Assembly (NCBI GenBank): GCA_964057225.1
Contig: OZ059895.1
Location: 13,206,001 to 13,270,000 of the forward strand
From: Auanema rhodensis
Taxonomy: Eukaryota > Animalia > Nematoda
Direction: 5' to 3'
DNA length: 64,000 nt
The notes under the pieces are model-generated. The model saw nothing but the letters and a program-made list of their open reading frames with translations. It was not told the DNA's origin and ran no database searches. The position numbers and the translations under genes are program-made. Positions 35,184 to 60,644 of this stretch are shown piece by piece (within the stretch, counting starts at the first letter, position 1; each line of letters starts with the position of its first letter).

Positions 35184-35608
35184 TGTTACATACATATCTC
35201 AAAGGAAAGCAGCTGACCATGGCAGCTGCTATTATTAAACTAATGCAGATAGTTTTTAAGCAATTCTGAGAATATTCTAGATGCACTTTTTATAAGCTTT
35301 GTAACAATTTGTGTAAACTGAGTAGGAGTTGTATGGATATATAAACCTGAGTCCTCAAGACTCAGGCATCTCATTATCTCATTATCTCATTATCTTACTT
35401 TCTCTTTATCTTCTTTATATTCTCTTTCTTAACTCTAGCTTAAATCTTTGTATAATTATATTATAATGCGAACAATAAACCTTTATATATTTGATCTCTT
35501 GTTTCTTATTTCACCTTACATTACACACTTATATTTAAAATCATACTCATCGTCTCATAATCTGTTTGGATATCTCAACTTGGAACCATTGAGAATCTAA
35601 ATGGAACG
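35184..35608 (+). repeat. Element A 5' LTR
   Basis: TGTTACAT...ATGGAACG; TATATAAA at ~35338-35345; AATAAA at ~35474; no differences seen against 47089-47513. Confidence 0.96.
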
Positions 35609-35626
35609 TGGAGGTTCCGCCGAGAT
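35609..35626 (+). promoter_or_regulatory. Primer-binding site, tRNA-Gln
   Basis: TGGAGGTTCCGCCGAGAT directly abuts the LTR and is complementary to the eukaryotic tRNA-Gln 3' end (ATCTCGGTGGAACCT-CCA) with one G.U pair. Confidence 0.88.
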
Positions 35627-36354
35627 CCTTCCTTTTGGACAGGATCTCGTAAAGGAACTCAAGCGCTACCGTCTACATCTCTTATTCAATTAAAAATCTT
35701 ATCTCTCTCTTAAAGTTAGCTTATAATATTTTCTTAAAAACTCTAAAACTTTTCTATTAAAAATTATATCCAAAAACTCTTTACAAAAACTCAGTCTTCC
35801 ATTCATTATATTCTCATAAAATTATTCATAAGAGTACTTATATCATTTATCATTCTCTCTATCCAAAATCCTATATACGAAAATTATTCAAATTCAATAA
35901 TTAACTTTTCTAAGAATTATAAGTTTATTTTCACATTTTTTGAACAAAAATAGTTAAGTTCTTTATAAAATTAATTTAGAATTAAGAAATAAAAAAAGAA
36001 TATTGCTTCTATACCTCTCAATCTTAATCATCTTATCATATTATCTGAATCTTCATCTTATCATACTATCTTAATCATCCTATCATACCATATTTTTATT
36101 ATTTTCTTTATGTTCGTTTATAAAACTATTATTCTTATGCTACTACACTGTATTCTCATAAACCCACCCCTTCCCCCCCCCCCCGTTATTTCATAAACAA
36201 GAAATCCCGTGTTAAACACGACAGTAAAAATATTTATTAGGCGCAGCGTATCCAAATTCCGATTACCTTAGCACCTGAAAATACGAAAAATAATTAAATT
36301 AATCAATAAGTTTTAACTCATACGCAAAAACCATCCCCCTCGTTAAGAATAATG

Positions 36355-36554
36355 CCAGACACTCAAGAGACTCGAGCGGAGGCCGACACTCAGGATAAGA
36401 CGTACGCCCCATGAAATAATTAGAGAATTTTTGAATTGAAATCTGCCCCACATTGATATAAATAATAAGAGTGGTCTCGCCATCATAGAGTCAGGGAGCA
36501 GGATGCAGAAGGCAGCTGACATACCTGTGACTCAGATAGGTTAATGAGGTCTGG
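36355..36554 (+). ncRNA. Structured cis-acting RNA domain in the element A leader (putative packaging or translation element)
   Basis: Helices CCAGAC-CTCA/TGAGGTCTGG, GAGAC+CACTC/GAGTGGTCTC, GAGTCA/TGACTC and GCAGG/CCTGT; equivalents in element B show compensatory changes. Confidence 0.7.
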
Positions 36555-36852
36555 GAAAATGAAATGATTGCGAAAATTCTATTTTGTATCCTTGTCCCAA
36601 AAGACTGGCGAACTATTAACTTTCATTTCATGCCTTTTTCACAATATAGAACTTGTCCCTTCGAAAAGGCACACTAGTTTCAAACCTGTGTTAGACCCGG
36701 ACAAGCTATATTGGTAAAGAGATTACTTGCAAGACTAGCTACCTTCATAAGAATCGCGCACACAAACCCAACATTATTCTTTACGTTTTTCTATATATAA
36801 AATTATTTCGGCACACGTTGGATATAACAAATTTCCTTACAGGATACCAACG

Positions 36853-39800
36853 ATGCTGCCCAATACTGGTCCAAAACCTCCGCTGGACCCTGCTGCCACT
36901 TCAAATATTATAAGAAGAAAAAGACAACCGCCCGCAACATATTCTCCCCCCTCTGCAAAACAAGCGAAGTTAAGCATTAAAACAAAGTCAATGGTAATAC
37001 ATACCCCAAGACATCGCGGCATTCAAAAACAATTCACCAATCCCAAATCACATGAAAAAACGAAGAAACAAAAAACAGACATAGTCGAAAGAAACACCTT
37101 AGAAAAGAAAATTATCCCAAACATTAAACCTATTCCTAAAAACATAGCAAGCAAAGGGAACCCTCAAAACCCCCCAACCAACACCATACCAAATACAATC
37201 AACCCAATCAATCCTTTAATAGCCACCCCTAGAAGAAGCAATACACCAACCACACAAAAATCACCTACGCCCGCACTTTCTTCAACCACACCCGCAGTAA
37301 GCTCATCCCCACCTCTACGAAACTCACCTTCATCCATTGATCATTCTACATCCGGGCATTCTCTATCTCCGTCTCTTCCATCGCAAACTAATCAAGCAAA
37401 TACTTTTGTTGCAGAAAACAAGAGAATTAACCCAAGAATGGACCCAATGGACGAAGGCGCACCACTTACGCAAACCTCGGGAAGGGCACCTGTTCCAACA
37501 CCTACAATCATCCCTCAACCAGCAGCGATTCCGTCCGCCATACGCGATATAAAAGCTCCACGCTACGATGGAAAAACACCATTCAACCGCTATCTACTAT
37601 ACCTAGATGAACACTTCAACGCTACAAGAACAACTATGCCCGAACGTCTTCAAAGCATACAATTATTGCTAGAAGATGATCGAGCAAGAGAAGCGTACAG
37701 AAAACTCACAACCGAAGATAAGCGACTTGGATGGGACCATGTCAAGAAGCGACTCTCAGAAATGATCACACCGGAAAAACAGAGAGAACGAGCAATGCAC
37801 CGCCTACATGGCTTGAAACAGTTACCAACGGAATCGGTACAAAGCTTTGCAACAAGATGTTCTAACGAAGCCTACTCGGCTATGGACATGAACAACGAAA
37901 GTGAGCTTAACATGCTCCGATCCACCTTCACCTGGGGACTAAGACCCGAAATAAGCGAACACGTTAGCCGTCTAGACCCACCAAACTTTGAGGAAGCTTA
38001 CGAAATGGCCTTACGAGAAGAACTCTTTATACAAAATAGACCACCATCGTTCGTCAACAATATGGAGAAGTCGTTCAACAACCTCAACATTCGAGACTCA
38101 AAGGACAACAATCAATACCAGAGAAACGAATCTAAGGATTTCAAAGGAACCAAACCGATGTATAATGGCAATGGCAAACCACACAACCGATATCCGGACA
38201 GATACAACAACCAATATCGGCCTCATCAACACCAATACAGGAACCATAACTCACGATTCTCTCAAAATAAGGGATCAAGACAAAACTACTTCGACAGATC
38301 ACGGAACAGAAGCCAAGAAAGACCATACTATCGAAACCGCGACCAAAACTATAGCGGACACAACAACCGGCGACAATCAAATAATCACGAACAATACCCC
38401 TCTCAATACAATCGAAGCCAATACAACAATTATAGAAGTCGCCCGCGCAGCACCTCCAATGGACCGGAACGGTATAGAGAACGCACACAGAGCCCAGGAG
38501 TACGTTTTCAAGTCAACAACGTCACGGAAAACAAAGTACCGAACAACAAAAGAAAATCAACACCATTCCTACCCCTTTTTATCACAATTATCGCACTCAT
38601 TATAAACACATGCAGTGCAGAAACAACGTACCAGTTATGCACAGGAAACAGAGGAGGAATATATGTCGAGCCGCCATCTCCAACAGCTTGCCGATCCACC
38701 GCACCAACTAATAACCATATCCAGAAGACAACAGCAGAATTGTTCATCCAAAACCTACAACCAAAAGAATGGGAAGCATGGAAATGTGCAATTGAAACTT
38801 ACCAACTCTGCATTCACGACGTTTTCTTCATCAGAGAAACTAATGTCTCACTAGCAAAAGTTTCACCAACAACACTGCAAGAATGTTCGTCAGCTATTAA
38901 AGAAAGAATATTCAACGGTACCAACCTTCAAAGAGAAGCACCAGGACTCTATGGAACTCCATTCCCAGAGACAACCATTACTAATGGTATATGGAAACAG
39001 GAATGCGAACAACGTACCAGATTCATAGCTGAACGAGGACACATGACCAGCCTACAAGACAATACAGTACTCTCAGATATATTCATAAACGACAACGGAT
39101 GCACCAGTGACAAAGGACAATGCCTAACCAACAACGCTCTCATCATATGGACCCCACCATCAGAAAAACATAGTTGCTCGTACACTTCATTAGGCTCTCA
39201 CGAAGTTTTTATATCAGAAGACACCATATTGATTCCCGGAATTCAAAGTGCTTTTATTCTAAACAATAAAACACCGGAAAAAGAAGCCTCCTCATGCTTA
39301 CAAAAAGATATATTTACTACAAATAGTGGAACTCTAATCTCCTTCAACTCAACCTCAAGCTTAGGACGATCAAGAAGACACGCAATCACGGAATACCCTA
39401 AAGGATTCTTGACAGTTCATCAATACCCCTCGCTAAGATATTCAGCCAGCAAAACCGGAACTATTCTACTATATACAACCTATATTCAACGGAAAAGACT
39501 TGACATCCATTACAATCTCAATAACATAACAAATATGTTACCTAAGTATATCGCAATCTTCAAATACCTAGGTATAAATTTTGATGTTATCAAAAATCGT
39601 CTTATATGGCACAAATATGAAGACGTCAACATAGCCATTCTACACGCCCTAGGAGAAGCAGAAATAAGAGAAGCAACAAAAATCGCGATCGATAATCTAT
39701 CGTATAAGGAACTTACGCATAAACTTAGCAAACGGATCACAATTAAGGATTTTAAGAAGATACTACCAACCAAAACAGGAGACTACTATGAAATCGCGAA

Positions 39801-42800
39801 AGAAATTGCTTACTCACTTGCGGAAATACCTACTACGTTAGCTACAGGAGAAACAACACCATCTTTAGAAGAATACTTATATCAACTCATGCCACCAAGA
39901 AAACCAAGACTCACCAAGACACGAAACGATTTAGAACTGTACGAACAACTAGCACAAGCAAAAATTATCCTGAACGCAATAAATAATCCGAAGAAGCTAC
40001 ATTCAAAAGAAGAATACGAAGCAGAAATGAAGAAATGGATCAAATATGAAAAAGAACTGAACTTACCACCATTACAACTGCCAAACTACACAGTTATCTT
40101 CGATGGCGACGATATATTCTACGGCTTCCGAAAAAGAAATCCTACAAATTATAGCATTACACAAGAGGATAGTGAAAAATTTTATAATCATTATCTACCC
40201 CTTATCAGTACTCCCGGAACACGACCTTTTGCAACCACAATTAGAAGCACTTCGACCCCCCTACAAACTACTACTACAACCACTACCACGACCCCTAAGC
40301 CTACAACCATAAGGAACGTCATCACTTCGACAATCACACCCAAAACACATATATCCACAACAACTAGACCCAAACCAACAATACCCACGTCTTCATCAAC
40401 TACTACTACTACTACCACTACTACTACTACTACTTCTACTACTGCTAGACCCAGATCAACAACAACCACAACACCTACAACAACCACAACTATATTCACC
40501 ACTCATCGACCAACACAATCATTCTCCACCCCCCAATCTACATTCAATATTACTACAAACCCAATCACAATCACCTCAAGCCAGGAATACAATAGGAAAG
40601 AATCACTCACCAAGTCACCGCCTCCAAGAACTACAAAAAGATCTATCACTACCACTCGCAGCACACTTGAAGAAATATCATCACATATTGGTAAGAAAGC
40701 TCACGTAGACTACCTTAAAGCTAAGAACGATATCGTCCAAAAATGGAATGAACATCTTCATCAACAAGAAACGCAATCTCATCTACAATATGCCACTACC
40801 AATCTGGAAGATGATATCATACGTACGTTCACAACAAACAGAAACAACATCTGCCACGTACAAAATAAACAACTACTTACCTGGTGGGCTATTCTTCAAA
40901 TAAATCCTACTATAGGGATGCGTACAATGCTACGACGACAGGATATATCTGCAAGATTCATAAATGATAAACTAATTTATGTAATGCCATGCACACCAAT
41001 TCAAATTACAAAAACATACCGCGATCACAAAGTCAACAGCACGTGTTTCCTGGAAACCCCAGTCGAAACGGAACATCACGGCCAACTGTTCATCCTACCA
41101 GGTACAAGAGACCTCACACCGATGGCACATGCCATACCATGCGGATTCACAATCAAGGATCCCTGGAAAGAAAACGATCAATGGACTAATAATAACCAAT
41201 CAATAAATGTAACATCACCAGCATACATCGACGAGTTAGGATCAATCAACCTAGAACATATCAAGTTTAATGGAAGCAACATTTTCAACAATCTAACAGA
41301 ATCAACGTTTCCTATGGCACTAGCAATATCATATGGATCCAGCTTAGCAACGCTACAGGCTACTTTACCAGGAAGAATAAAACCTGTAATCAAACAAAGA
41401 TTAATTCCTAACATGAACCCTGTTACCCTAACAGCAGGAGCAGCCAGCAGCTTACTACTCAGCTACGAACATACAAAAGAAGCTATAACTTGGAAAATGT
41501 TTGACTTTCTGTCACCAATATGGGAAAAGATTCAAACCTGGACACTACGCGTACTTGCTATCATTGGATCAATCATCATAACAATTGGCATAATCACACT
41601 CGCCACCTGGATAATAAAAATATACGCATGTAGTTCAAGGATACCCATCAACAATGTCAAATGGGAAGCAGAATACTTACAACCACTATCAACTGAGAAC
41701 ACAAGAACAGAAACATCTCATCCTTCTCCGTCCGCTCCATACGTCGACAACCATCACAACAGCTGTCAACTCACATTGTATGATCCTTCAGCACCAATTC
41801 CTGAACACATTTATGAAGCTTATTTCCCTACAAGCATGAAGAAAGAAAACATAAACTACATAGGAGGATCACAATTACCGTTTGTCCCAATTTCAATCCA
41901 CAATCACATCTTTAAGGCACTATGGGACACGGGAGCATCAGCATCATACATGCGAGAATCCACCTTCAAACAACTGCCCGCTGCAACGATGGTACTAAAA
42001 CAAACAACAGCGATAGTCGCGAATAAATCTAAATTCTCATTTATGGGATACACAAGGATCCTCATAACAATAGGAACAACAGAAACAGAACACAAATTTT
42101 ATGTAGCAGAAGATAACTACTGTCCAGCACCAGTGTTACTTGGAATAGACTTCATGGAAGCATTACATCAACAAGGAATTTACACCTCACTTCGACCGCT
42201 GGATAAAACAATTGTTATCGGCACAACACATGTTCCACTAGCACGAGAAACATCTCCGTGGGAACACCAGACCACGAAAGCATATGTGGTTAGCTTAGAA
42301 AACAAAACGCTAAGACCAGGAGAAACAAGAACGCTCACGCTAGAAGTACACGATCCAGAAAGCTATGAACAGGCGTTTCTAGATTGTAAGAAACCAGGCA
42401 ACAAACTCTCTTTCACGCCTACTATATTTACGCCCACTGGATACGGAGTACAAATTTACGCGACGAACATATGCAAACAGCCACTCGAAATTCAAATGAA
42501 CCAAGAAATAGGGATAGCAGAAGCGATACCAAAGGACAACCAAGAAAAATACGAAGGACAATACATACTTCCGGAAGCTCGATGGGAAGAGCAACTGCCA
42601 TATTTCCCAGACAAGTTCATCAATGAGCTTGACCTTTCAGAAGCCTGCTTCTCACAAATCGAACAACAGCAACTGAAAGAAATAATTTTACTACATAAAC
42701 AAGCGTTTCTCAACGAAGATAGAAATATCGGACTCTTCCTAGGACCAATTGAACACTCCATTCCAATCATGCCAGGAAAAACACCATCATTCAAAATTAC

Positions 42801-46050: not shown

Positions 46051-46254
46051 TTAACTAACAAAAATCGTAGAATTGTAAAAATAATTTTTCTTTCTTTCGT
46101 ATAGTACATTAAACATAAGACATAGATCAAAAACCACCGAAATTCTAATTTCTATCTTTTAATTTTAACAAATTGTAACAATCACTGAAAAAACAAACTA
46201 TATAAAGAGAAAATTTTGATAGAGAAAAATTCAATAACACTTTTCTTACTCAAA

Positions 46255-46899
46255 ATGACCTCCTCTCTCGCCAACGTCACACTCTCTACATTCCTCGCAA
46301 CTCCAACACCACTGGTCCCTCTAGCGACCACTATTGAACAAGAATGGATAGAGGTAGAAAACCTTCGTGAAGGTCTTCTACCTATCAACTGCATGAAGCC
46401 CAACTTAGGACCAATAATAAGCCTCCAAACGAGCAAATTGGAAAAGAAGACACAGCACATCCTATTTATGATGGAACTATTGGAGGAGAAAACCAAAAAC
46501 TATAAGGAAAACGATCTGAAGGAGCTTCGCCAGCATCAAAAGAAATGGACAGAAGGATGTTCTCTCAGCCAGAAAGAGAACAGAATCCGACACATAATGC
46601 TGGGACAACCCGCCAGAACGCAGACCACAGCTGACATCTACAAAGCAATGCCGACGTGGACAACACAGATGACACAACAAGCTGTAGGAAATAGCGGAAC
46701 CGAAGAAGAAGCATCGTGGATAGAGATAGGGCAAGACCTATCAGTAGTAATCAAAAAACTACTGACAAAAAGGACTACCAACATGTCCGCATCAAAAAGT
46801 AAGGCAAAAGCAGTTAGCCAAACCATCAGAACAATGGAGCTGCTTGGACTAGCATCAATGACGGAAATGATCCAGGAAATTGACCAACTGGCGGATTAA
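46255..46899 (+). CDS. Accessory ORF2 of element A (214 aa from first ATG), unknown and probably helical
   Basis: Open frame between pol and the 3' LTR; positional and weak sequence homologue of element B ORF2. Confidence 0.75.
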   Translation: MTSSLANVTLSTFLATPTPLVPLATTIEQEWIEVENLREGLLPINCMKPNLGPIISLQTSKLEKKTQHILFMMELLEEKTKNYKENDLKELRQHQKKWTEGCSLSQKENRIRHIMLGQPARTQTTADIYKAMPTWTTQMTQQAVGNSGTEEEASWIEIGQDLSVVIKKLLTKRTTNMSASKSKAKAVSQTIRTMELLGLASMTEMIQEIDQLAD

Positions 46900-47088
46900 A
46901 GAAGAGAGGAAAGGTTTAAATCATTTATAAAATTCTATCTCTTAAAATTTTTTCTCTTTATCAATAGTTTGTTGAAAAATTTGCTTTATCTCATGCCATT
47001 TTATTTTTTTTTATTTTTTTTATTTTTCTCTCTTAATTATTATTTGCATATAACAGCTGAGGTCAGCTGACTTGTATTCGTTGGGGCA

Positions 47089-47513
47089 TGTTACATACAT
47101 ATCTCAAAGGAAAGCAGCTGACCATGGCAGCTGCTATTATTAAACTAATGCAGATAGTTTTTAAGCAATTCTGAGAATATTCTAGATGCACTTTTTATAA
47201 GCTTTGTAACAATTTGTGTAAACTGAGTAGGAGTTGTATGGATATATAAACCTGAGTCCTCAAGACTCAGGCATCTCATTATCTCATTATCTCATTATCT
47301 TACTTTCTCTTTATCTTCTTTATATTCTCTTTCTTAACTCTAGCTTAAATCTTTGTATAATTATATTATAATGCGAACAATAAACCTTTATATATTTGAT
47401 CTCTTGTTTCTTATTTCACCTTACATTACACACTTATATTTAAAATCATACTCATCGTCTCATAATCTGTTTGGATATCTCAACTTGGAACCATTGAGAA
47501 TCTAAATGGAACG
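47089..47513 (+). repeat. Element A 3' LTR
   Basis: 425-bp direct repeat of 35184-35608. Confidence 0.96.
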
Positions 47514-47581
47514 TAACATGAAATTGGAAAAAAAACAATAACGAGGATAAGTATGTAAATCATTGAATATCAGGTATTTTC

Positions 47582-47700
47582 GCTTACGACCATACCACGT
47601 TGAAAGTACGCCATCCCGTCCGATCTGGCAAGTCAAGCAACGTTGGGCCCGGTTAGTACTTGGATCGGAGACGGCTTGGGAATCCCGGGTGCCGTAAGCT
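47582..47700 (+). rRNA. 5S rRNA immediately downstream of element A
   Basis: 119-nt consensus copy. Confidence 0.96.
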
Positions 47701-47744
47701 TTTCAATTTTTTTTAACGATCATACCACGTTGAAAGTACGCAAT

Positions 47745-48026
47745 GCAGCTGATTTTCAATTTTATCTCTTCCGTAACAAATGTTTTTAATTTTCTAGCAG
47801 TTTTACTTAGATAGCTCAACCCAAGGCATCAAAATATCTTCAATCTTATTTCTATATTACAGTTATAAACCAGTAGTTTATGAACCTTCATCTTAACTTT
47901 ACTGTTTCTATCTATTTCCTATTGAAACAAACATTGTTTTAACACTATACAACTGTGAAACCTTTTTTAATTTATTGTATTTGGAGCTCATAAGATTTGA
48001 TATCATCGAGGAATTTAGATGTAACG
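47745..48026 (+). mobile_element. Putative decayed LTR relic forming most of the 5S spacer (representative unit)
   Basis: Collinear matches to the LTRs of A and B: GCAGCTG, GTTTTTAA, TATAAACC(A/C)GTAG, TTAACTTTACT-GTTT, ATTTCCTATTG and the terminal GAAT(T/C)TA(G/A)ATG(T/G)AACG. Confidence 0.55.
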
Positions 48027-48110
48027 TAGAAAATTACATAACTAACATGAAATTGGAAAAAAAACAATAACGAGGATAAGTATGTAAATCATTGAATATC
48101 AGATATTTTC

Positions 48111-48229
48111 GCTTACGACCATACCACGTTGAAAGTACGCCATCCCGTCCGATCTGGCAAGTCAAGCAACGTTGGGCCCGGTTAGTACTTGGATCGGAGA
48201 CGGCTTGGGAATCCCGGGTGCCGTAAGCT
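48111..48229 (+). rRNA. 5S rRNA
   Basis: 119-nt consensus copy. Confidence 0.96.
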
Positions 48230-48639
48230 TTTCAATTTTTTTTAACGATCATACCACGTTGAAAGTACGCAATGCAGCTGATTTTCAATTTTATCTCTTC
48301 CGTAACAAATGTTTTTAATTTTCTAGCAGTTTTACTTAGATAGCTCAACCCAAGGCATCAAAATATCTTCAATCTTATTTCTATATTACAGTTATAAACC
48401 AGTAGTTTATGAACCTTCATCTTAACTTTACTGTTTCTATCTATTTCCTATTGAAACAAACATTGTTTTAACACTATACAACTGTGAAACCTTTTTTAAT
48501 TTATTGTATTTGGAGCTCATAAGATTTGATATCATCGAGGAATTTAGATGTAACGTAGAAAATTACATAACTAACATGAAATTGGAAAAAAAACAATAAC
48601 GAGGATAAGTATGTAAATCATTGAATATCAGATATTTTC

Positions 48640-48758
48640 GCTTACGACCATACCACGTTGAAAGTACGCCATCCCGTCCGATCTGGCAAGTCAAGCAACG
48701 TTGGGCCCGGTTAGTACTTGGATCGGAGACGGCTTGGGAATCCCGGGTGCCGTAAGCT
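48640..48758 (+). rRNA. 5S rRNA
   Basis: 119-nt consensus copy. Confidence 0.96.
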
Positions 48759-49697: not shown

Positions 49698-50327
49698 TCA
49701 TCCTTCCTCCTCATTGATTTGTCCCATTTGAAAGTCGGTTGCTGTATGCTGCCCAGCGACGGTCCATGTGTGATAGAGACTGAGATCTGTCAGCAAATCT
49801 GTCGTCTGGTTGCATATCTTCTTTTTCATATCTTTCTGGTTCTGGGTGGTGGCGCCAGTTGCCATTAAAATCTTCAATGCTTGGCCAACTCGTTCTCCAG
49901 CTTTCCTTATTGACTGGTTTGCGGACTTGTTTAAACTCTCTTCTGTCCAACTCTTGTAGATTTCTTCTGCGGCCCATCTCGGGATTAGATCAGCGCTTCC
50001 TTCGTATTCTGGGATTGAATAGCCTAATTCTTGACGCAGTTTGCGGATGGTGAACTTGGTGCGGACGGTGGCTGACAACCAGTTCTTTGCCATTTTGGCC
50101 ATTTCGTCTTCTTCATGGTTACATAAACATTGTAACCTTTCCAGAGTTTCTATCAATAGAGTCACTCTGGATAGATTCTCCGAGAAGGACCGAAGAATCT
50201 TTAGTTTCTTGGGGTTGTCTTTCTCCAGCTCTTGTAGCTCAATTTGGAGTGAATGGATGTTGATCCATTTTTCCTTGATCATTTCGATGGGTGTCTCGCA
50301 GGGTAGAGGTGGAAGGTTGAGCGACAT
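49698..50327 (-). CDS. Accessory ORF2 of element B (209 aa from MSLNLPP; upstream in-frame ATG at 50402 crosses a poly-A tract)
   Basis: Same position as ORF2 of A; shared pattern TP..I...WI.+..L, L+E.LE, K.W, +R..LG, P.W, +GQ.L. Confidence 0.75.
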   Translation of the reverse strand: MSLNLPPLPCETPIEMIKEKWINIHSLQIELQELEKDNPKKLKILRSFSENLSRVTLLIETLERLQCLCNHEEDEMAKMAKNWLSATVRTKFTIRKLRQELGYSIPEYEGSADLIPRWAAEEIYKSWTEESLNKSANQSIRKAGERVGQALKILMATGATTQNQKDMKKKICNQTTDLLTDLSLYHTWTVAGQHTATDFQMGQINEEEG

Positions 50328-50543: not shown

Positions 50544-53500
50544 TCAAAATTCGAAAACTTGTATCACGCTGTTGTACCTTATTGGTACGTGAAACGGTTT
50601 TGGAGGAGTAATCGGATTTTTGTCTTCTAAACCGAGTGCCAATTTGAGAGCTGAGCTCCATCTTTTGATTGTAGGTAACTCTTTTTGTCTTTCTTCGTAG
50701 AGCTCTTGTCTTGTTTCTTCTCCAATTTTGTCGACCAATTGTTGGAATTGGTTGTTTTCTTCTTTGTTCGTAGATGTCTTGTCTGCTGTATCTAGTCCAG
50801 ATTCCGATTGATAACTTTCTTGTTGTCTTTCCAACGTATCTTCCTGCGGTGTTATTGTTTCTTTAGTTGTTATTATAGGTCGGCTTTGTTCGTAGAACTC
50901 GTCCTCGTTATCGCTGTCCGAATCAGAAATTGGGGGCGTGGCTTGACCGTTGTTCTGAGCGCGCGTATTGACCTGATCGTGCCGGGACCTGTTGCTATAA
51001 ATAGCGGATCCCGCGTCATTTCTGCCGTGCTCGCTTTCCTCGATGTTATTGTCATCGGGTGGAAAATATCTTATATTATTCTTATGAGCCCGTATTCTAT
51101 TCCCGTCGTCATCTGCTAATATGACATTATTTTTATTTATTTCTTTTATGAGGTACGGTCCATCACTGACTGCTTGCAGTTTGTTGGTGGGCTTTGCCCG
51201 TTTGACGAGAGCTCTGTTATCCACGTAGAGTTCTCGTTCTTGTATCTTGTGTGCCTCGTCGTATTTCTTCTTCATCTTCTCATTGTTCCTTGTTATCCTT
51301 TCGTATATTTTCTCATGTAAATCTCCTGTGGGTTTGAGAGTGGGTGCGGGAGTGTCCAGGTTGTGGTCGATTGGTAGTCGCGCTGCCTGACCAAAGATAC
51401 AATCGTAGGGCGGTGTGCGAGTTGTGGCATTAGGTAGCCTGTTGAGTGTGAATACTATCTTAGGTAGTATATCATCCCAATTGTCCTGTTCCGTATTTAC
51501 GTACGACGTTAGTGCTTCTTCTAGTGTTCTGTGTAGTCGTTCCACTTGTCCATTTGCATTCTTGTAATATGGCATAGTTGTATGATGCTCGGAACCTAGT
51601 TGTTCGCACATTGTTTTGAATTCGTGAGAAACAAAATTGGATCCGTTGTCCGTTATGATCCTTTTTGGTGGTCCGAAAACAAAGAACAGGTTTTTCTTAA
51701 TTGCTGTTATGATTTCTTCTGATGTTTGTCTTAATAATGGTGTTGCTATTATCCATTTGGAGAACGCGTCCTGTATTGATGAGATATATCTGTTCCCGTT
51801 TTGTGTTCGTGGTAGTGGTCCGAGAATGTCCATGTGAACTCTTTCCCAAGGTTGTGAAACGGTGGGAAAGTTTCTCATGGGTTCCACCGTTGCTTCATGC
51901 GGGTTATTTTTCCTTTTTGCGCACTGAAGACATCTGTTGACGTAGTTGGTGATATCTTCTTGCATTCCTGTCCATGTATAACGGCGTAGAATTGAGTCAT
52001 GTGTTTTGTTGATTCCTAGATGAGCTCCTAGTAATGGGTCCTTATGAAACTTATCAATTATTGCTGTAGTAATTGTTGGATCATTGGGTAGAACGGCTCG
52101 AGGTGTTTGGAATGCTGTTTTTGGCTTTGCATAGAGAATATTATTTTGAACTATATATCGATCTGTTAGTTGCCTTCCTGCTGTTTTGTTCTGAATCTTT
52201 TCTTTTGTTTCCATGATCCATTCTGTTTCCTCTTGAATTGTCCGAAGGTCCGTGATAGTTGTAATAGTAGAGATTTGATGCGTGGGAGATTCTTTCGTTT
52301 TCTTCTTTCTTTCCTTCGCTTCGTTGATTTCGTCTTCGAAGTATCTTGATAATGCGTCACAAACGCTATTAAGACGTCCTGGGCGATAGATAATTTCAAT
52401 ATCATACTCTTGGAGTACTATTTGAAATTTGGCTAGTCTTCCTATGAGGTCTTTTCTTGTCATAAGGCTAGTTAAGGGTCTATGATCGGTTATGATTTTG
52501 ATCGGTGCTCCTAAGATGTAGGTGCGAAACTGATGAACTGCGAAAGTTAGGGCTAAGGCTTCGATCTCAATCGGGGGGTAGTTCCTTTCTGCTTTGTTTA
52601 GTTTACGGCTAGCGAAAGCTATTGGGTGCAATGGTTCTTGACCATCCGCAGATTGCAATAGAACTGCTCCTACTGCAATTATGCTTCCGTCGCTTTCAAC
52701 TACGTATGGTCGTTTTGCTCTAGGTGCCTGAAGAACCGGTGCTTGACAAAGGACTTTCTTCAGGTGTTGGAAAGATTTTTCTTCTTTGTCTCCCCATGTG
52801 AAAGCTTTATCCTTTTTTGTGAGGTCGTAGAGAGGTGAGGCAATTCCCGCGGCATTTTTGATGAATCTTCGAAAGTAGTTAACGACGCCCATGAAAGCTC
52901 TGACTCCTGTTGTTGACTTTGGTCTGGGGTAGTCTCTGATGGCTTTAATTTTCTGAGGGTCCGGTTTTATTCCCTCATATCCGACTATAAATCCGAGAAA
53001 CTTGACTTCTCTTTGTCCAAAGGTGCATTTCTTCAGCTTAATTTTGAATCCTAGCTCTATTGCTACTCTCAAAACTTCTTTGATATCTTGAAGATGTTGT
53101 GTGGTTGATTCTGATATAAGCAGAAGATCGTCTAGATATACGAAGAGTTTGCAGCGTACATGTTGTTGTAGGTACCGTACTGCGTTTTGGAATGTATGTG
53201 GGGCTCCACAGAGTCCCATGGGCATTCGACAGTATTGGTATGTACCACTAGTTGTAGTAAATGCTGTTAAATGTCGATCTTCTTTACGCAGAGGTATTTG
53301 GAAGAATCCTGATACCAAATCAAAGTTAGTGAAGATGCATGCTCCTGCTGCTAGATCGAGAATATCTTGTATGTTTGAAATGACGTATATCTGCTTTAGT
53401 GTTATGGCATTTAATGCTCGAAAATCCGTAACAAAACGGTATGTTTTGTCCTTCTTTTTGACGAGTATAACGGGACTTGTGGTAATAGAAATTGATGGTT

Positions 53501-56500
53501 CTATTATACCTTGTTCGAGCATTTCCTCCACCTGTTTTTCGACTTCTTCTTGTTGAGTTAGAGGGATCCTGTATGTGATTTGAAATGATGGAAATTTTCC
53601 TGGTATGATAGGTATATTATGTTCCACTGGTCCTTTAAAAAGTCCGATATTGCGATCCTCGTTCAAGAAAGCCTCCTTATTTCTAAGTACTATTTTCTTT
53701 AATTCTTGTCTTTCCAATTGGGTGAAGATGGTGTTTGTTACGTCGAGATCCTTTATGAAGTCGTCTGGGAAGTATGGTAGTTGTTCTTCCCATCTTGCTT
53801 CCGGTGGGACGTATTGTCCTTTTTGTTCTTTGATATCTTTTGGGATAGCGTAAGCAGTTCCGATTCCTTGATTTGTTTTAATTTTGATTGTTTCGGGTGA
53901 GATATTTGTAGCGAATATCTGAACCCCGTATCCTGTTGGCGTGAAAGTTGTAGGGGCGAAAGTCATTTTTCCTATTCGTTGTGAACTTCTTATAAAAGCT
54001 TGTGCGTATGATGCTGGATCGTCTACTTCCAACGTGAGCGATCTGGTTTCTCCTGGGTAAAACTGTTTAGTTTCCAGGCTTACTACATGAGCTATCGTGT
54101 GGTTCTCGGTCCACGGTGAGTAGTCTTGTGCTAGAGGTACTATTGTATCTCCGACTAGCAATGAATTCTGAAGTGGTCGCAATGATGTATTTATTCCTAT
54201 TTTGCTGAGGGCTTCTATAAAGTCTATTCCTAATAAGATAGGTGCTGGGCAGTGGTTGTTGGCAGAAATCAGTATTTTGTGCTCAATCTCTGTTTTTCCA
54301 ATAACAATTGGAAGTCTTGTGTAGCCCAGGAAGGAAAACCGTGATTTGTTTGCTACGATAGCTGTTGTCTTTTCACCAACCATCGTTGCTGCCGGTAGTT
54401 GTTGAAATGTGCTTTCCTTCATATATGATATAGAAGCTCCTGTGTCCCATAAAGCAGTAAAGATCTGATTGTGGATGGAGAGAGGTACGAAAGGTAGTCG
54501 TGATCCTCCGATGTAGTTAATCCTTGATTCTTTCATGGCGTATCGTGGTAGATAGGCTAGAAAGTCGTTGTCTGATAGTGGAGCGTCGGGATCGTATCGG
54601 GAGATTCTTGAACAGAATTTGTTTTGTTGAGATTTATTCAGTGGTTGTAATTGCTGAAGTTCGATTTCTTTATTTTCTCGCCTTGGTTCTTCTTCTTCTT
54701 CTTTGAATGTTATTTGATTGATTGGTATCCTTGTGGTACATGCATATATTTTTAATGCCCAGATGGTAGCAGTTATAAGTCCTATTGCGACGAGAATTCC
54801 TCCAATAATGGCTAGTGTCCTTAGTATCCATGCTGTAATTGATTCTCCTACATATTCGAAGAAATTTGTGATTTGTTTTTCTGCGTTGTTTGATATGTTA
54901 TCTGCTAACATTAATGTCGTTCCAACTGTTCCTCCTATAATGCCTATTGGATTTAGATTAGAGAATCCAGACTGTTTGAAGACTGGTTTCAGCTTTCCTG
55001 GCAGAGTGGCTTGTAAGGATGCTAAGCTCGATCCGTAGGAGATAGCCAGTGCCATTGGAAATGTTGACTCCGTGAGGTTTGAAAATATGTTGGAATTGTT
55101 GAACTTAATGTGATCAATTTTTACAGATGTGAGTTCATCCGAAAATGAGAAGTGAGTTACATTCAATGTTGAATTATCTTTCATCCATTGATTGTTTATT
55201 TTGTAGGGATCTGATGTAGCCATATCGCATGCTATGATGTGAGCATATGGTGTCAAATCTCGTGATCCTGGTGTAATGAATAGTTTGCCGTGATGTTCCG
55301 TGTCTACAGGCGTCTCCAGGTAACATTTATCGTCTCGTTTGTGATCCGAATATACATGTGTTATTTGTACAGGGGTGCATGGCATGACGTAGATGAGATG
55401 TTCTCCGACGAATTTGGCTGAAATGTCCTGTCGACGAAGCATAGTGCGAATTCCTATGGTCGGATTAATTTGCAGGATTGCCCACCAGGTAAGTAGCTGT
55501 TTATTTTGCATTCTGCAAACGCTTTTCTTTGTTATTTGGAAAGCTTGTAAGATTTCCTCCTCGAGTTTTGACGTAGAGTATTGGAGGTGAGACCTTGTAT
55601 CTTGTTGTCGTAGTTGATCATCGTATTTTTGAATAATATCTGCTCGTGTTCGTAGGAAATTGAGGTGTGCTTGTGATCCTGTGTGAGATTTAATTTTCTC
55701 TACCGGTTGAGTTGTTGTTGCTCGTTTTGTGGTAATCCGAGTTGTGGGAATTGTCCTAGGAGGTTCTCTGCGATTTGTGGTAGTGAGAAGACGTGGTGGT
55801 GGAGTTACTGGAGTTGTTGTACTCTGGTAATAATGATATCTCCTTGGTGTGGTTGTGAATTGAGGTAAAGGTGTCCGATAAGTAGTAGTTGTCGGGTCAA
55901 CTGTGGTTGCAGGGGTTCTAGTGGTTGTTGTAGTTGTAGTAGTTGTGGTAGTGGTTGTCGTAGGACTAGCACCCGGTGACTCAATGAGCTGAAGATATGT
56001 TTGTTGAAATAATAAGCTGTCTTCTTCCGTGATGGGTCTGGCTGTAGGTAGTGTTTTCGGGAATCCGTAGTTTTGTGCGTGTCCGTTGAAGATGAGAGTA
56101 TAGTTGGGAAAGGTAATCGCTGAAGAGTTTGACTGTCTTGTGAGATCAGCCCATTTCTTGTTTTCTGCTTCTCTTTCCTCTTTTGATATCCGGCTTAGAC
56201 GATTGTTTTGAGCTAGGTATTCGAGAAATTTTTGTATTTCGTCTATCTGGGTGTAGACCTGTGTGTCTGTACGTGATCTAGGCAGTTTTGTCATTCTGGG
56301 TGGGTAAAGTTGGTATAAGTATTCCTCCAACGATGGAATAGTTTCACCTGTAGCCAGAGTTGTAGGTGTCTGTGCTATTTCGAGTGCTATTTGTCTTGCT
56401 CGTTCGAGATAGTCGCCTTTGTGGTTTAGTAATCGTGTGGCAAAGTCGCTGATAGTGATTTGCTTGCTGAGTTTTGCCGTAATTTCTGATGGTAATAGAT

Positions 56501-59288
56501 GTTCAATGGCGATTTCAGTGGAAAGTCGAATCTCGGCTTCTGCGAGTGTGTGTAGGATAACCATGTTGATATCGGTGTAGTTGTGCCATAAGAGTCGATA
56601 TTTTAGTTTTGATGCTTCCAGTTGTAGGAATTTGATGAGCCCTATGTGTACGCTAGATGTTTTGAGGTAGTCTATAAGGTTATAGGTACTATCCAGTCTT
56701 TTACGATTTCGATATGTTTGGTACATTGGTAGTAATCCTGTAGAACTGTCTGTGAGGCGAAGTGATTGATAGATAGTGATGTTGAAGAATCTCGTAGGGT
56801 ACTCCTGTGGTGCTTTTCTCTTTTGACGTCGGGGTTTTAACTCGTTGATGGAAATGTACGTACCGCTGTCAGTTGAATAGATGTTCTTATTCATACATCT
56901 TGTAGCAATAGGGTCTGGCGTGTCGTCGTTGAGGATGAATGCTCCTTGTATTTCCGAGATTATAACAGTATCATTATTGATTAGTGCTTCGAATTTTCCT
57001 AAAGTTGTGTAATCACAATTTCGATGGTTATTGGGTGGGATCCATGTGATAACTGCGTTTGTGGTGTTGCATACACCTTGTTGTTTAGTGCATCCCTCAG
57101 TGTTGATAAACAAGTCGGAGATTATAGTGTCATCGTGTAGGCTAGTCATCATTCCTCTTTCTAATGTGAATCTTGATTTTGTTGTGCAAGAGGATGACCA
57201 GAACGATTTTGATTGAGTATTGGTAGGCATAGGAGTTTTGAATAGTCCTGGAGCTTCCCGATTGAGGTTGTTATCCGTGTGTCGTCTCTCTTGAATGGCT
57301 GTTTTGCATTCTTGTGGAGTGGCTGGTTCTATTCGGAGTAATGTGAGGTTGTTTTCCCTGATGAAGAATAAGTCGTAGGCGCAAGCTTTATAGATTTCCT
57401 TGGAGCATTTCCATGCTTCCCATTCTTTGTAATTCATATTTTCTGCAAATAGTTCCACTGTTTTTATCTTGACTCCGTCTTTGTGTGCATAGTCTGAGCA
57501 GGTTGTTGGTCGAGGTGGTTCGAGGAAAATACCTCCTCGTTTGCCGATGCAGAGTTGATAGGTGTTGTCTGCCTGACAGGGTATCAAAGATAAAGCGATG
57601 ACGGATAAGAATAGCGGTATGAACGGAAGTGTCTTCCTTGTTTTTCCTGTTTCTTTCTCCACTTTGTTAACGTGAAAACGAACGCTAGGGCTTCTGGTAC
57701 GATCTCTGTACCTGTTATGTTGTCCATGCGAAGAGCTGCGATTTCTTTGTTGGAATCCGCGATCGTGATAGTTTCCGCGGTTGTATCGGTCGTTTCCTCT
57801 GTGCTCATGTCGATCGTTTCCTCTGTTATCATATCGGTCGTTTCTTCTGTTATCGTATCGATCGTTGTATCTATCGTACCGTTGAGGACTACGATAACTG
57901 TTGTATCCTCGTTGGTATCCATTGTTTCTGTTATCTTGTCTGAAGTTGGGACGGTTATTTTGTCGGTCGTCCTGGTATCTTGGTGGGCGGTATCCTCCTC
58001 TTCTTTGATTCCATTGTTCCTGTGGGCGTTGTGGTCTTGATTGATTTCCATAAAACGTTCTTGGTTGGTGTGTTTGTGATTCGTCATGGGTTTTGTCCTG
58101 TTGTGAGGTTCTCATGTGGTTTATGAGACCGTTATTGATCTCTAATTGTTCCACGTTTTTGATCAAGTTGTTGATATGTAGCGACGGATCTTCGTCGGCT
58201 TCTACTGTTTCGGCGATAGTTACAGCTGCATCGAAGGTTATAGGGCTGCGGTTATTGACGTGTGTTCTTAAAGTCTTTCTTAGTCCTCCTAAGAACGAAA
58301 CACGTAGTATTCTTTCGTCAGCTGTTGAGTCCATGTTGCATGATTCGTAAGCGAGATTTCTGCAACGTTGCGCGAAATTTTGTACCGTTTCGTTTTCTCC
58401 TTGTTTCAAATGGGTGAGTTTCGTAAATGCAGCATCCCTCTTTTCTGGAGGTTGTAATTTCTCCGATAGTAGACGTTTGACGTGGTTCCATCCTTGGCGT
58501 AAGTCTTCTGCTGGTATAGTTCGCAGAGCTTCGGCGGCTCTGTCCGTTCCAAGAAGTAGATAAAGATGGGAAAGTCTCTCCGCAATAGGGACTTGAAGTG
58601 CGTCAAAATATCCTTCTAGTCTTTGCATGTAGAGATTGAATGGTACGGATCCATCATAAAGCGTAGGTTTATGATGGCGAATAGAAACATTGTTGGCTCT
58701 CGCGATAGGAGGATTATCTTGCTCCATCTGATTTGCCATTTGAGGGCGACTTCTCTGCTCTGTAACATTCGAAGTCAAATTTATGTTATTGTCTGACGAA
58801 GAAGAGACAGGAGACAGAGAGTGCCCATGCAAAGATTGATCAGTGGAAGAGGGGGAATTTCTAGGAATAGGAGAAGTGAGGATTTCCGCGTTTTCGGTTT
58901 GAATAGGACGTTGAGGAGAAGTGTGATTTGGAAGATAAGTGTTAGTGCCGGTGTCAATGACTGTTTTTGGAGAGTGAGAAGAGCGTTTGGGCGTGGATTT
59001 ACTAGATGTTGCTTTATTTTTATTCAAACTTATCGCATGCCTAGTAGTTTTGATAGCAGTTGTATAAAGTTTCTTAGCAGTTAGCGGTGTGCCCGGAATG
59101 GGGGGTAATTTCTTTGATTTAGCGTTAGTTTTCGGATGTTTCGCATCTGGTCGAAATGCATCCGGTGGTCCTCTTTTTCTTTGGTTTCTATGCAGTGCTG
59201 CTTCCACTGTCTGGGTATTCTCTGAGCTATTTGTAGTGTTTTGGGTATTATTTCCCGGCGGAGGGTTTTGATTCGCTGTGTCAGCCAT
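50544..59288 (-). CDS. Gag-Env-Pol polyprotein (2914 aa)
   Basis: Gag KPTLYDG...LKQGENETVQNF; signal peptide ~57626-57570; furin-type RRQKR ~56831-56817; Thr-rich tract; gB-like helix; TM ~54822-54757; DTG 54446-54438; YLDD 53138-53127; RNase H; HHCC, DDE and GPY integrase motifs. Confidence 0.96.
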   Translation of the reverse strand: MADTANQNPPPGNNTQNTTNSSENTQTVEAALHRNQRKRGPPDAFRPDAKHPKTNAKSKKLPPIPGTPLTAKKLYTTAIKTTRHAISLNKNKATSSKSTPKRSSHSPKTVIDTGTNTYLPNHTSPQRPIQTENAEILTSPIPRNSPSSTDQSLHGHSLSPVSSSSDNNINLTSNVTEQRSRPQMANQMEQDNPPIARANNVSIRHHKPTLYDGSVPFNLYMQRLEGYFDALQVPIAERLSHLYLLLGTDRAAEALRTIPAEDLRQGWNHVKRLLSEKLQPPEKRDAAFTKLTHLKQGENETVQNFAQRCRNLAYESCNMDSTADERILRVSFLGGLRKTLRTHVNNRSPITFDAAVTIAETVEADEDPSLHINNLIKNVEQLEINNGLINHMRTSQQDKTHDESQTHQPRTFYGNQSRPQRPQEQWNQRRGGYRPPRYQDDRQNNRPNFRQDNRNNGYQRGYNSYRSPQRYDRYNDRYDNRRNDRYDNRGNDRHEHRGNDRYNRGNYHDRGFQQRNRSSSHGQHNRYRDRTRSPSVRFHVNKVEKETGKTRKTLPFIPLFLSVIALSLIPCQADNTYQLCIGKRGGIFLEPPRPTTCSDYAHKDGVKIKTVELFAENMNYKEWEAWKCSKEIYKACAYDLFFIRENNLTLLRIEPATPQECKTAIQERRHTDNNLNREAPGLFKTPMPTNTQSKSFWSSSCTTKSRFTLERGMMTSLHDDTIISDLFINTEGCTKQQGVCNTTNAVITWIPPNNHRNCDYTTLGKFEALINNDTVIISEIQGAFILNDDTPDPIATRCMNKNIYSTDSGTYISINELKPRRQKRKAPQEYPTRFFNITIYQSLRLTDSSTGLLPMYQTYRNRKRLDSTYNLIDYLKTSSVHIGLIKFLQLEASKLKYRLLWHNYTDINMVILHTLAEAEIRLSTEIAIEHLLPSEITAKLSKQITISDFATRLLNHKGDYLERARQIALEIAQTPTTLATGETIPSLEEYLYQLYPPRMTKLPRSRTDTQVYTQIDEIQKFLEYLAQNNRLSRISKEEREAENKKWADLTRQSNSSAITFPNYTLIFNGHAQNYGFPKTLPTARPITEEDSLLFQQTYLQLIESPGASPTTTTTTTTTTTTTTRTPATTVDPTTTTYRTPLPQFTTTPRRYHYYQSTTTPVTPPPRLLTTTNRREPPRTIPTTRITTKRATTTQPVEKIKSHTGSQAHLNFLRTRADIIQKYDDQLRQQDTRSHLQYSTSKLEEEILQAFQITKKSVCRMQNKQLLTWWAILQINPTIGIRTMLRRQDISAKFVGEHLIYVMPCTPVQITHVYSDHKRDDKCYLETPVDTEHHGKLFITPGSRDLTPYAHIIACDMATSDPYKINNQWMKDNSTLNVTHFSFSDELTSVKIDHIKFNNSNIFSNLTESTFPMALAISYGSSLASLQATLPGKLKPVFKQSGFSNLNPIGIIGGTVGTTLMLADNISNNAEKQITNFFEYVGESITAWILRTLAIIGGILVAIGLITATIWALKIYACTTRIPINQITFKEEEEEPRRENKEIELQQLQPLNKSQQNKFCSRISRYDPDAPLSDNDFLAYLPRYAMKESRINYIGGSRLPFVPLSIHNQIFTALWDTGASISYMKESTFQQLPAATMVGEKTTAIVANKSRFSFLGYTRLPIVIGKTEIEHKILISANNHCPAPILLGIDFIEALSKIGINTSLRPLQNSLLVGDTIVPLAQDYSPWTENHTIAHVVSLETKQFYPGETRSLTLEVDDPASYAQAFIRSSQRIGKMTFAPTTFTPTGYGVQIFATNISPETIKIKTNQGIGTAYAIPKDIKEQKGQYVPPEARWEEQLPYFPDDFIKDLDVTNTIFTQLERQELKKIVLRNKEAFLNEDRNIGLFKGPVEHNIPIIPGKFPSFQITYRIPLTQQEEVEKQVEEMLEQGIIEPSISITTSPVILVKKKDKTYRFVTDFRALNAITLKQIYVISNIQDILDLAAGACIFTNFDLVSGFFQIPLRKEDRHLTAFTTTSGTYQYCRMPMGLCGAPHTFQNAVRYLQQHVRCKLFVYLDDLLLISESTTQHLQDIKEVLRVAIELGFKIKLKKCTFGQREVKFLGFIVGYEGIKPDPQKIKAIRDYPRPKSTTGVRAFMGVVNYFRRFIKNAAGIASPLYDLTKKDKAFTWGDKEEKSFQHLKKVLCQAPVLQAPRAKRPYVVESDGSIIAVGAVLLQSADGQEPLHPIAFASRKLNKAERNYPPIEIEALALTFAVHQFRTYILGAPIKIITDHRPLTSLMTRKDLIGRLAKFQIVLQEYDIEIIYRPGRLNSVCDALSRYFEDEINEAKERKKKTKESPTHQISTITTITDLRTIQEETEWIMETKEKIQNKTAGRQLTDRYIVQNNILYAKPKTAFQTPRAVLPNDPTITTAIIDKFHKDPLLGAHLGINKTHDSILRRYTWTGMQEDITNYVNRCLQCAKRKNNPHEATVEPMRNFPTVSQPWERVHMDILGPLPRTQNGNRYISSIQDAFSKWIIATPLLRQTSEEIITAIKKNLFFVFGPPKRIITDNGSNFVSHEFKTMCEQLGSEHHTTMPYYKNANGQVERLHRTLEEALTSYVNTEQDNWDDILPKIVFTLNRLPNATTRTPPYDCIFGQAARLPIDHNLDTPAPTLKPTGDLHEKIYERITRNNEKMKKKYDEAHKIQERELYVDNRALVKRAKPTNKLQAVSDGPYLIKEINKNNVILADDDGNRIRAHKNNIRYFPPDDNNIEESEHGRNDAGSAIYSNRSRHDQVNTRAQNNGQATPPISDSDSDNEDEFYEQSRPIITTKETITPQEDTLERQQESYQSESGLDTADKTSTNKEENNQFQQLVDKIGEETRQELYEERQKELPTIKRWSSALKLALGLEDKNPITPPKPFHVPIRYNSVIQVFEF

Positions 59289-59594
59289 TTTTGTTGGTTT
59301 CCTGGAAGGAAATTATTAACCAACGAAGACTGAGCTTATATATACAAACGTAAGAAACAATATGGGGTTGGTATGCGCGACTCCTGTTTCTGTCAGGGGG
59401 CCAGCCTGCAGCGGGTCTCTAGTCGGAGAATAGCCTGGTCAGGTTCATACACGAGTCCGCAACTACGTGTGACCTTAGCAAAGGACCGGGTTCTTATCTC
59501 ACGAAGAGGCATGAGATGCGAGACAGTGGTCTGTGTATTGTGCCTTTTCAGTCATGGACAAGATCAGGTACACAGGCTTCTCGAACTCATTTTT

Positions 59595-59806
59595 CCAGAC
59601 TTCTCGTGCCTAAGCGAACCCGCAGAAGACGTTCCCTTTTAACGTTGCTTCTGCTCCCCTGGGCTCTGCTAGGTGGGACCACTTAACTTCAAAAAAATAT
59701 TACGTTTTGTAATTCTCATATAGGACCGAAAAAGGGTTAATTTCAAATGAATGCGCGTCTTATATCAAAAGTGTACGCCTCCGCACGATGTCCCGAGAAA
59801 GTCTGG
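59595..59806 (-). ncRNA. Structured cis-acting RNA domain in the element B leader
   Basis: CCAGACTT-CTCG/CGAGAAGTCTGG, GGGAC+CACTT/AAGTGGTCCC, GAGCCC/GGGTTC, GCAGAAG/CTTCTGC. Confidence 0.7.
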
Positions 59807-60240
59807 TATTGTTTCTCACGGGCTTGAATAAAATAGAATAGTTTATGGTTTATGAGTAGGAAGTTTTACGAAGAGAAAAAAAAATAGATGATTCAAGAAT
59901 ATGTTTTGGTATTTTTTTTTTTTTTTTTTTGAAAATGTCTTATAAATGATAATGAATAAATGTTTTTAAAGTATTTTATAAATAGATTATGACAATAAAT
60001 GTTTTGATTTGTTTGTTTCAAAAGAGTTTTCATGCATTATATGCTTTTAATATATATGAAATAAAAGAATGAAGTAAAGATAAAATTCGGGTAACATTTA
60101 GGAGATAAAATTGACAATTTTAGAAATAGAAGTTTGAATATTATATAAAGTTTTGATATGAAGGATAAAAGATTTTGAATACAAAAAGGATTTCGAAAAG
60201 TAGCGGAAATGGTCCATAGAGATCCGTCCGTTATAGACGG

Positions 60241-60258
60241 ATCTCGGTGGAACCTCCA
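60241..60258 (-). promoter_or_regulatory. Primer-binding site, tRNA-Gln
   Basis: TGGAGGTTCCACCGAGAT on the minus strand, directly abutting the 5' LTR. Confidence 0.9.
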
Positions 60259-60644
60259 CGTTCCATTTGATTGCCCTAGGGTTCCGACTAGGGTTTCAGA
60301 TGGATTTTGTGCAAGGATTTCATTGTTCAACAAGTAGATAAATTAGCAACCGTTTTATTATATAGAGAAAACTACAATAGGAAATGTTATAAACTACAAA
60401 CAAGTAATGTTAAAGTCTAAAACTACATGATAGAAGATCTCTCTTAGTGTGTTTTCTACGGGTTTATATAGCAAACTATAGAATGTAAAAAGTGAATGAA
60501 TTTGTATAAAAAGAATTACGTTCCACCTTATTCCGTGGAATCTTTTATAAAAAAACTTTCGAATTCTAGTTTCTTATTTTATTTGATTAAACTAAAGTCG
60601 GTTGACGTAGTCAACCGCCTTCTCTATAAGTTATGTATGGAACA
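60259..60644 (-). repeat. Element B 5' LTR
   Basis: TGTTCCAT...ATGGAACG on the minus strand; TATATAAACCC and AATAAA present. Confidence 0.96.

Follow-up and report, generated by a model that had tools for sequence, protein, structure and literature searches.

The closest described systems to the two elements analysed here, A and B, are nematode errantiviruses of the Gag-Env-Pol type that carry an HSV/gB-type envelope protein; their earliest description is by Sacco et al. 2022, as cited in PMC13524379. These elements share with A and B the order of open reading frames and the gB-like Env, and a tRNA-Gln primer site as in A and B appears in 8 of the 30 nematode rows considered (of 36 given there). 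The main text of PMC13524379 makes no mention of secondary structure, UTRs, splicing or rRNA; we did not find there a counterpart of the leader RNA, the second open reading frame (ORF2) or the probable 5S targeting described below for A and B. Cer1 of C. elegans likewise belongs to the Ty3/gypsy elements of nematodes; an acceptor precedes its ORF, and it faces the same export problem. Its leader contains an SL1 acceptor that is skipped by the long RNA (PMC3315495), and its export requires CERV (PMC10309623). Cer1 uses tRNA-Pro where A and B use tRNA-Gln, and CERV is made from a spliced mRNA, whereas ORF2 of A and B is a separate 3' ORF.

Three further kinds of RNA element provide points of comparison. 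The retroviral packaging signal psi is usually located between the primer site and the gag AUG (PMC7828637). In MMTV it is unpaired purines with a 5' GGAG that drive the binding of Gag, with related motifs in HIV (PMC8096270), HIV-1 SL3 psi is read by the CCHC zinc fingers of NC (PMC8952333), and foamy virus Gag packages through a Gly/Arg-rich sequence, without Cys-His fingers (PMC7828637). Like these signals (HIV-1 SL1-SL3, the MMTV SL4 purine loop, foamy virus CAS-I), the leader RNA of A and B is structured, lies between primer site and gag, and is predicted to expose GGAG and purine bulges. Unlike them, it has no Rfam match, no CCHC NC and no shared loop palindrome, and its ~450 nt make up a single closed unit at some distance 3' of the primer site. 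The export elements RRE, RmRE, RcRE and the MTE of MusD resemble it in size, closing stem, multiple domains, a possible tertiary contact and a candidate small accessory protein, but the RNA of A and B lies in the 5' leader and has no sequence likeness to them, and its partner is a candidate only. Finally, the 5' packaging regions of Ty1 and Ty3 are also 5' cis-acting RNA structures of LTR retrotransposons. There, genome and mRNA are drawn from a common pool, the leaders are short and the signals ill-defined, whereas A and B have a long non-coding leader with a discrete unit; even for the Ty3/gypsy elements of yeast, little is settled about the signals for packaging and export (PMC4974528).

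Two envelope-carrying elements in a 5S rDNA array

The window, that is the whole stretch of 64,000 nucleotides that was analysed, is a 5S rDNA array with a 529-bp unit, broken by the two intact LTR elements. Their features are as follows.

35184-47513, + strand: element A; LTRs identical, 4-bp target duplication
60644-49100, - strand: element B; one LTR mismatch, 4-bp target duplication
35184..35608, + strand: 5' LTR of A (TG...CG), identical to the 3' LTR at 47089-47513
60259..60644, - strand: 5' LTR of B; 3' LTR at 49485-49100, one mismatch
35609..35626, + strand: primer-binding site of A, tRNA-Gln type; agrees at 11 of 12 letters with the Gln entry listed in the PMC13524379 supplement
60241..60258, - strand: primer-binding site of B, tRNA-Gln type; 12 of 12 letters fit the same entry of PMC13524379
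36853..46050, + strand: Gag-Env(gB-like)-Pol ORF of A; 3065 aa, stop-free
50544..59288, - strand: Gag-Env(gB-like)-Pol ORF of B; 2914 aa, stop-free
46255..46899, + strand: ORF2 of A; 214 aa, TATATAA at 46199
49698..50327, - strand: ORF2 of B; 209 aa, TATATAA at 50395

Both are intact Ty3/gypsy elements of the Gag-Env(gB-like)-Pol kind. The polyprotein of each is ordered Gag, gB-like Env, protease, RT, RNase H and integrase, and is followed by ORF2 of ~210 aa. A and B thus possess the LTRs, tRNA primer site, Gag, gB-type Env and PR-RT-RH-IN by which nematode GAG-ENV-POL errantiviruses are recognised. Their identity to one another is 80% in the RT region and 42% in the Gag/Env N-terminus. The named closest relatives of Env, among the 10 that were looked up, come from Auanema, Caenorhabditis and Diploscapter, which makes a rhabditid nematode the likely host. 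A protein search with the Gag region returned no match. The host elements belong to an already described group; their leader RNA is a new structure, and its purpose is probably a familiar one. ORF2 is an orphan, helical protein encoded 3' of pol in both elements, with TATATAA 56-68 nt upstream. We found no Pfam family and no homologue for it, the AlphaFold pLDDT values of 42.6 and 39.5 were too low for a fold search, and its Atlas matches were uninformative.

At 35608 and 60259 the LTRs end in CG, as does a solo LTR in the window; LTRs usually end in CA, not CG. The purine tracts ahead of the 3' LTRs are very short in both elements. A hairpin separate from the leader RNA, common to A and B, overlaps the primer site (35609-35660, and 60257-60205 on the minus strand; z -3.3 and -5.9), and short hairpin-like sequences are shared just 5' of the 3' LTR (about 47052-47070, and 49520-49503 on the minus strand) and at the LTR start. 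One contig joins the LTR end at 35608 to 46591 inside ORF2, without splice signals, perhaps through a nested insertion in another individual.

What appears to be a satellite in 1-35183, 47514-49099 and 60645-64000 is the 529-bp 5S rDNA array: at the Rfam gathering score, all 64 matches in the whole window were to 5S. The array also contains 399-bp units without most of the 5S gene, and its unit gave no match to a spliced-leader RNA. Three insertions (47514, 60645 and 19578) lie 68, 73 and about 57 nt ahead of the point where a 5S gene begins, in both orientations, and 4-bp duplications are present at the insertions upstream of 5S genes. By analogy with yeast Ty elements, this pattern likely reflects targeting upstream of Pol III genes. 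The solo LTR (19238-19577) is related to the LTR of B and lies exactly at the inversion point of the 5S array, with non-matching flanks; it is probably the scar of an LTR-LTR recombination.

Architecture of the leader RNA

The predicted structured RNA spans ~450 nt in each leader and comprises a basal helix (P1), three domains (I-III) and a weakly folded segment 3' of domain III inside P1. It is followed by a TATATAA motif and by a hairpin (V) ahead of gag.

36341..36785, + strand: whole structured RNA of A, 445 nt
59349..59820, - strand: whole structured RNA of B, 472 nt
36341..36354, + strand: 5' arm of P1 in A, partner 36772-36785; 13 of 14 pairs at p 0.94-0.97
36772..36785, + strand: 3' arm of P1 in A, partner 36341-36354
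59820-59807:59362-59349, - strand: arms of P1 in B, pairing with each other
36355..36554, + strand: domain I of A; branched, with the GGAG hairpin, a ~80-nt variable AU-rich loop and a purine bulge at 36493-36497
59595..59806, - strand: domain I of B (single-sequence fold and hand alignment)
36559..36631, + strand: domain II hairpin of A, with a conserved apical internal loop
59511..59590, - strand: domain II of B (single-sequence fold and hand alignment)
36634..36721, + strand: domain III of A; long irregular stem, conserved AA bulge, three-way junction at the end
59417..59508, - strand: domain III of B (single-sequence fold and hand alignment)
36794..36800, + strand: TATATAA of A, candidate internal promoter (putative role), 59 nt before the gag AUG
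59336..59342, - strand: TATATAA of B, 54 nt before the gag AUG
36816..36852, + strand: hairpin V of A, enclosing a candidate 3' splice/trans-splice acceptor (AG 36841-36842)
59293..59324, - strand: hairpin V of B, enclosing a candidate acceptor (AG 59303-59302)

An earlier note on this DNA had described a covarying fold of ~200 nt in both leaders. All the helices that it named are present where it placed them, and the fold stands, but its boundaries do not: what had been drawn is domain I, less than half of the RNA. The sequence conservation that the note had followed to about 36800 turned out to be the rest of the same molecule, namely P1 and domains II and III. P1 is a 14-bp helix whose arms lie ~430 nt apart, with p 0.94-0.97 when A and B are folded singly; between the two copies 9 of its pairs are identical, 4 are compensatory and 1 is broken. 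The compensatory changes first reported for domain I were borne out, since 29 of 37 aligned pairs are identical, both bases differ in 7, a single base differs in 1 and none is broken. Domain II contributed 10 aligned pairs (2 compensatory) and domain III 29 (6 compensatory, 2 wobble, 3 broken). An AGCTA/TAGCT helix proposed by RNAalifold was dropped for a longer domain III stem that is backed by both single folds.

Parts of domain I are less firmly paired. The GAGTCA and GCAGG helices of A compete for base 36528, and the CACTC/GAGTG helix, found by two-sequence methods, stays under p 0.3 in each single-sequence ensemble. The GC-GGAG-GC octamer is invariant, as had been claimed, and unique within each element. 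The hairpin assigned to it is weak: it has only 2 bp, with p 0.66 in A and a different register in B folded alone, and it shows no covariation because its sequence is invariant. The GC flanks of this octamer are presumably identical to those of HIV-1 SL3. The likeness to SL3, which had been noted with the caution that it might be coincidental, is probably just that, because Gag has no CCHC knuckle and the RNA has no Rfam match. The G-run bulge of domain I and the C-run ahead of the 3' arm of P1 count 3 and 3 nt in A and 4 and 4 nt in B; they may form a tertiary contact (G3:C3 in A, G4:C4 in B), with the change in length as a single event. The structured RNA starts 420-715 nt downstream of the primer site, and classic psi regions lie nearer to it than that.

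Comparative evidence and controls

The comparison involved two sequences only, A and B, and the pair table, which included hairpin V, was aligned and fitted by hand. It contains 99 pairs, of which 73 are identical, 19 compensatory, 3 wobble and 4 broken. Because this table was fitted, we ran a structure-blind test, in which A and B were aligned by MAFFT without structure (54% identity) and each copy was given an independent MFE fold. This test returned 49 pairs common to A and B, 14 of them compensatory; domain I alone accounted for 16 and 3. Across 100 class-preserving column shuffles the shared pairs averaged 1.35 (maximum 11) and the compensatory pairs 0.24 (maximum 3), while homologous coding windows (45-76% identity), in all 16 cases, had at most 15 shared and at most 1 compensatory pair. 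A looser helix-scan gave a weaker separation: the longest common helix measured 10 bp and the longest in any shuffle 9, and 3 of 100 shuffles reached 4 compensatory changes within a single helix. RNAalifold, which the earlier note had proposed as a check, recovered the fold on the sequence-only alignment and additionally showed P1 and further helices beyond domain I.

The structural signal is comparative and does not reside in single-sequence stability. For domain I, the stability relative to shuffles was not unusual in A (z -0.97) and moderate in B (z -2.66), and A taken by itself did not stand out in stability from its shuffles (z -0.68 to -1.44). These stabilities, the hand-fitted table and the restriction to two sequences are the points in favour of chance pairing between two related sequences. 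Set against the shuffle and coding-window maxima (11/3 and 15/1), the 49 shared and 14 compensatory pairs of the blind test make this explanation extremely improbable. A coding cause of the conservation was rejected, as tblastx showed short, stop-interrupted segments only. On the evidence of the aligned sequences, the conserved leader structure is confirmed as real and larger than first drawn. The reverse complement gave 36 shared pairs, 10 compensatory, in the blind test, since Watson-Crick symmetry predicts such scoring. The aligned pairs include 4 G-U against 1 A-C, and therefore the sense strand is mildly favoured.

A motif-pattern search for a third homologue in viral, metagenome and genome contigs found none, nor did protein-led scans find a relative. 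A pattern of LTR end plus primer site matched 90 metagenome loci and no viral ones. In none of the 90 did tblastn match the polyprotein of A or of B, none matched the leader to a meaningful extent, and ARAGORN found no tRNA in the 5 of them to which it was applied; most of these loci (L001-L090) come from one assembly and contain a repeat joined to a 3' end like that of tRNA-Gln, with no relation to A and B. The Rfam comparison that had also been suggested gave no family for either leader RNA: the Rfam 15 covariance models had no match in the A region at E up to 5, and in the B region matched only 5S rRNA, plus two sub-threshold chance matches at E 1.8-2.1. Likeness to SRP, RNase P, telomerase and group II introns had no Rfam support. 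We did not find the leader RNA described in the open-access papers searched.

Possible roles of the leader RNA

The region between the structured RNA and gag bears on which transcripts would contain the structure. An acceptor-like TTnCAG/G lies 10-14 nt before the gag AUG in A and B, 3' of the structured RNA, as does the TATATAA motif. The nematode-type splice-acceptor consensus and the usual TATA spacing served as background for these two assignments. On the sense strand, A has 4 copies of TATATAA (both LTRs, before gag and before ORF2) and B has 7 (the same places and three others in AT-rich non-coding DNA), and none lies inside the long ORFs of A or B. The structured RNA ends 61-68 nt before the gag AUG, P1 closes 57 (A) and 47 (B) nt upstream of the acceptor, and a pyrimidine tract lies ~15-20 nt upstream of the AUG. 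Hairpin V consists of 9 invariant pairs without covariation, and within it the acceptor AG is predicted to be paired (p 0.76-0.95 in A, p 0.76-1.0 over both copies). Conserved occlusion of the AUG was rejected, as U and G are paired in A and only G in B. Because TATATAA and the acceptor lie 3' of the structure, the mRNA would likely lack it and the genome RNA would keep it. We infer that a short-leader mRNA arises by trans-splicing or from the internal promoter, with the structure confined to genome RNA, and this division favours packaging or export over an IRES.

The available RNA contigs derive from four likely-RNA runs of one study; they do not show transcript starts or strand, and their depth and ends are not used as evidence. 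They cover 36247-36446 and 36478-36873, with the strand not told, and one of them runs unspliced across the acceptor site. Among the 15 contig joints listed (of 23), there was no sense-strand joint at the acceptor, and none of the records containing the sequence is listed as RNA. Many antisense introns occur in 36275-43082 on the minus strand, with CT..AC ends in 10 of the 15 joints listed (of 23) and lengths mostly of 41-81 nt. A heavily spliced antisense RNA runs across element A, and its exons are non-coding; an antisense protein was rejected, as stops interrupt every one of the three frames in 9 of the 12 antisense exons.

Our best explanation, held tentatively, is that the ~450-nt RNA serves as a packaging signal that marks the full-length genome RNA. 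The LTR-initiated transcript, with 11 or 12 upstream AUGs in its leader, would be a poor mRNA. The polyprotein would instead be translated from a short-leader RNA, made by SL1 trans-splicing at the acceptor or from the internal TATA promoter, and either route would lose the structure. RNA that retained the structure would be bound at unpaired purines (the GGAG loop and the GGG(G)A bulge) by the Arg/Asn/Gln/Tyr-rich post-capsid part of Gag, and would thereby be selected into particles. Hairpin V would hide the acceptor AG, and a fraction of the transcripts may thereby avoid trans-splicing. The RNA lies where a packaging signal would be sought, between primer site and gag in the full-length RNA. 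Neither polyprotein has a CCHC knuckle; the post-capsid 170-175 aa of Gag are rich in Arg, Asn, Gln and Tyr and contain 25 and 34 Arg, which invites comparison with the Gag of foamy viruses (PMC7828637). Both elements are intact with near-identical LTRs, and therefore their cis signals would have been under recent selection. Dimerisation, which the earlier note had coupled with packaging, did not hold, since palindromes of at least 6 nt are not at homologous loop positions in A and B. Against packaging, a long closing stem with radiating domains would fit export elements equally well, and the long Gag-Pol RNA of Cer1 is not trans-spliced, so by analogy the leader-bearing RNA might itself be an mRNA.

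A nuclear-export element of the unspliced genome RNA, like RRE, RmRE or the MusD MTE and bound by the ORF2 protein from its internal promoter or by host export factors, is a strong rival that was absent from the first interpretation, though we consider it less likely. P1 and the three domains give the RNA the shape of a Rev-type response element (long closing stem, branched domains, ~350-500 nt), and at 445-472 nt with a long basal stem it resembles the ~350-nt RRE (PMC4488727) as well as the MTE, which has tertiary contacts (PMC5767303). Unspliced RNA with an acceptor must escape retention, as Cer1 RNA does via CERV (PMC10309623), and both elements carry ORF2 behind its own TATATAA. However, known response elements lie mostly in env or near the 3' end (the RRE in env), the ORF2 proteins barely align (E 0.14) although the RNA is conserved, and ORF2 offers no family, homologue or usable model to judge it by. 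Packaging and export roles may coexist. It is conceivable, though we think it rather unlikely, that A and B are 'complex' nematode retroviruses with their own Rev/RRE-like pair, in which a tertiary-folded leader RNA and the internal-promoter ORF2 protein would bind each other, rescue genome RNA from SL1 trans-splicing and direct it to export and packaging; Gag-Env-Pol would come from another, short-leader mRNA.

The earlier note had offered an IRES beside packaging, through which full-length RNA would translate Gag-Env-Pol past the upstream AUGs. Their number, the multi-domain build and ~450-nt size of the RNA, and its end close to the AUG with the pyrimidine tract between would suit this, and the reading is kept because the long RNA of Cer1 is not SL1-spliced (PMC3315495). 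We nevertheless judge it improbable, as the conserved TATATAA and acceptor give a cap-dependent route, hairpin V covers the initiation region and no Rfam IRES matched at E up to 5. That the RNA mainly sets the share of transcripts escaping trans-splicing appears very doubtful. The paired acceptor AG in both copies and the closeness of P1 to the acceptor speak for such a switch, but hairpin V lacks covariation and domains I-III seem more than a switch needs. Less probable again is an independently acting RNA, whether an excised outron RNA, a ribozyme or a structure of the antisense transcript: P1 joins both ends as in a stand-alone RNA, spliced antisense transcripts exist and shared pairs are found on the reverse strand too, against which stand the want of an Rfam match, the G-U bias towards the sense strand and one antisense intron (36275-42570) that removes the whole structured RNA.

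What remains of the first interpretation is thus a conserved structured leader RNA with packaging as its best reading. In an envelope-carrying element of a likely tractable animal, this RNA is bounded and backed by covariation; a protein that may be its partner is at hand, and a split between genome and mRNA is predicted. Two questions thereby become testable: how a retroelement preserves its genome at full length when the host removes 5' ends by trans-splicing, and how RNA is selected by a Gag that has no zinc knuckles.
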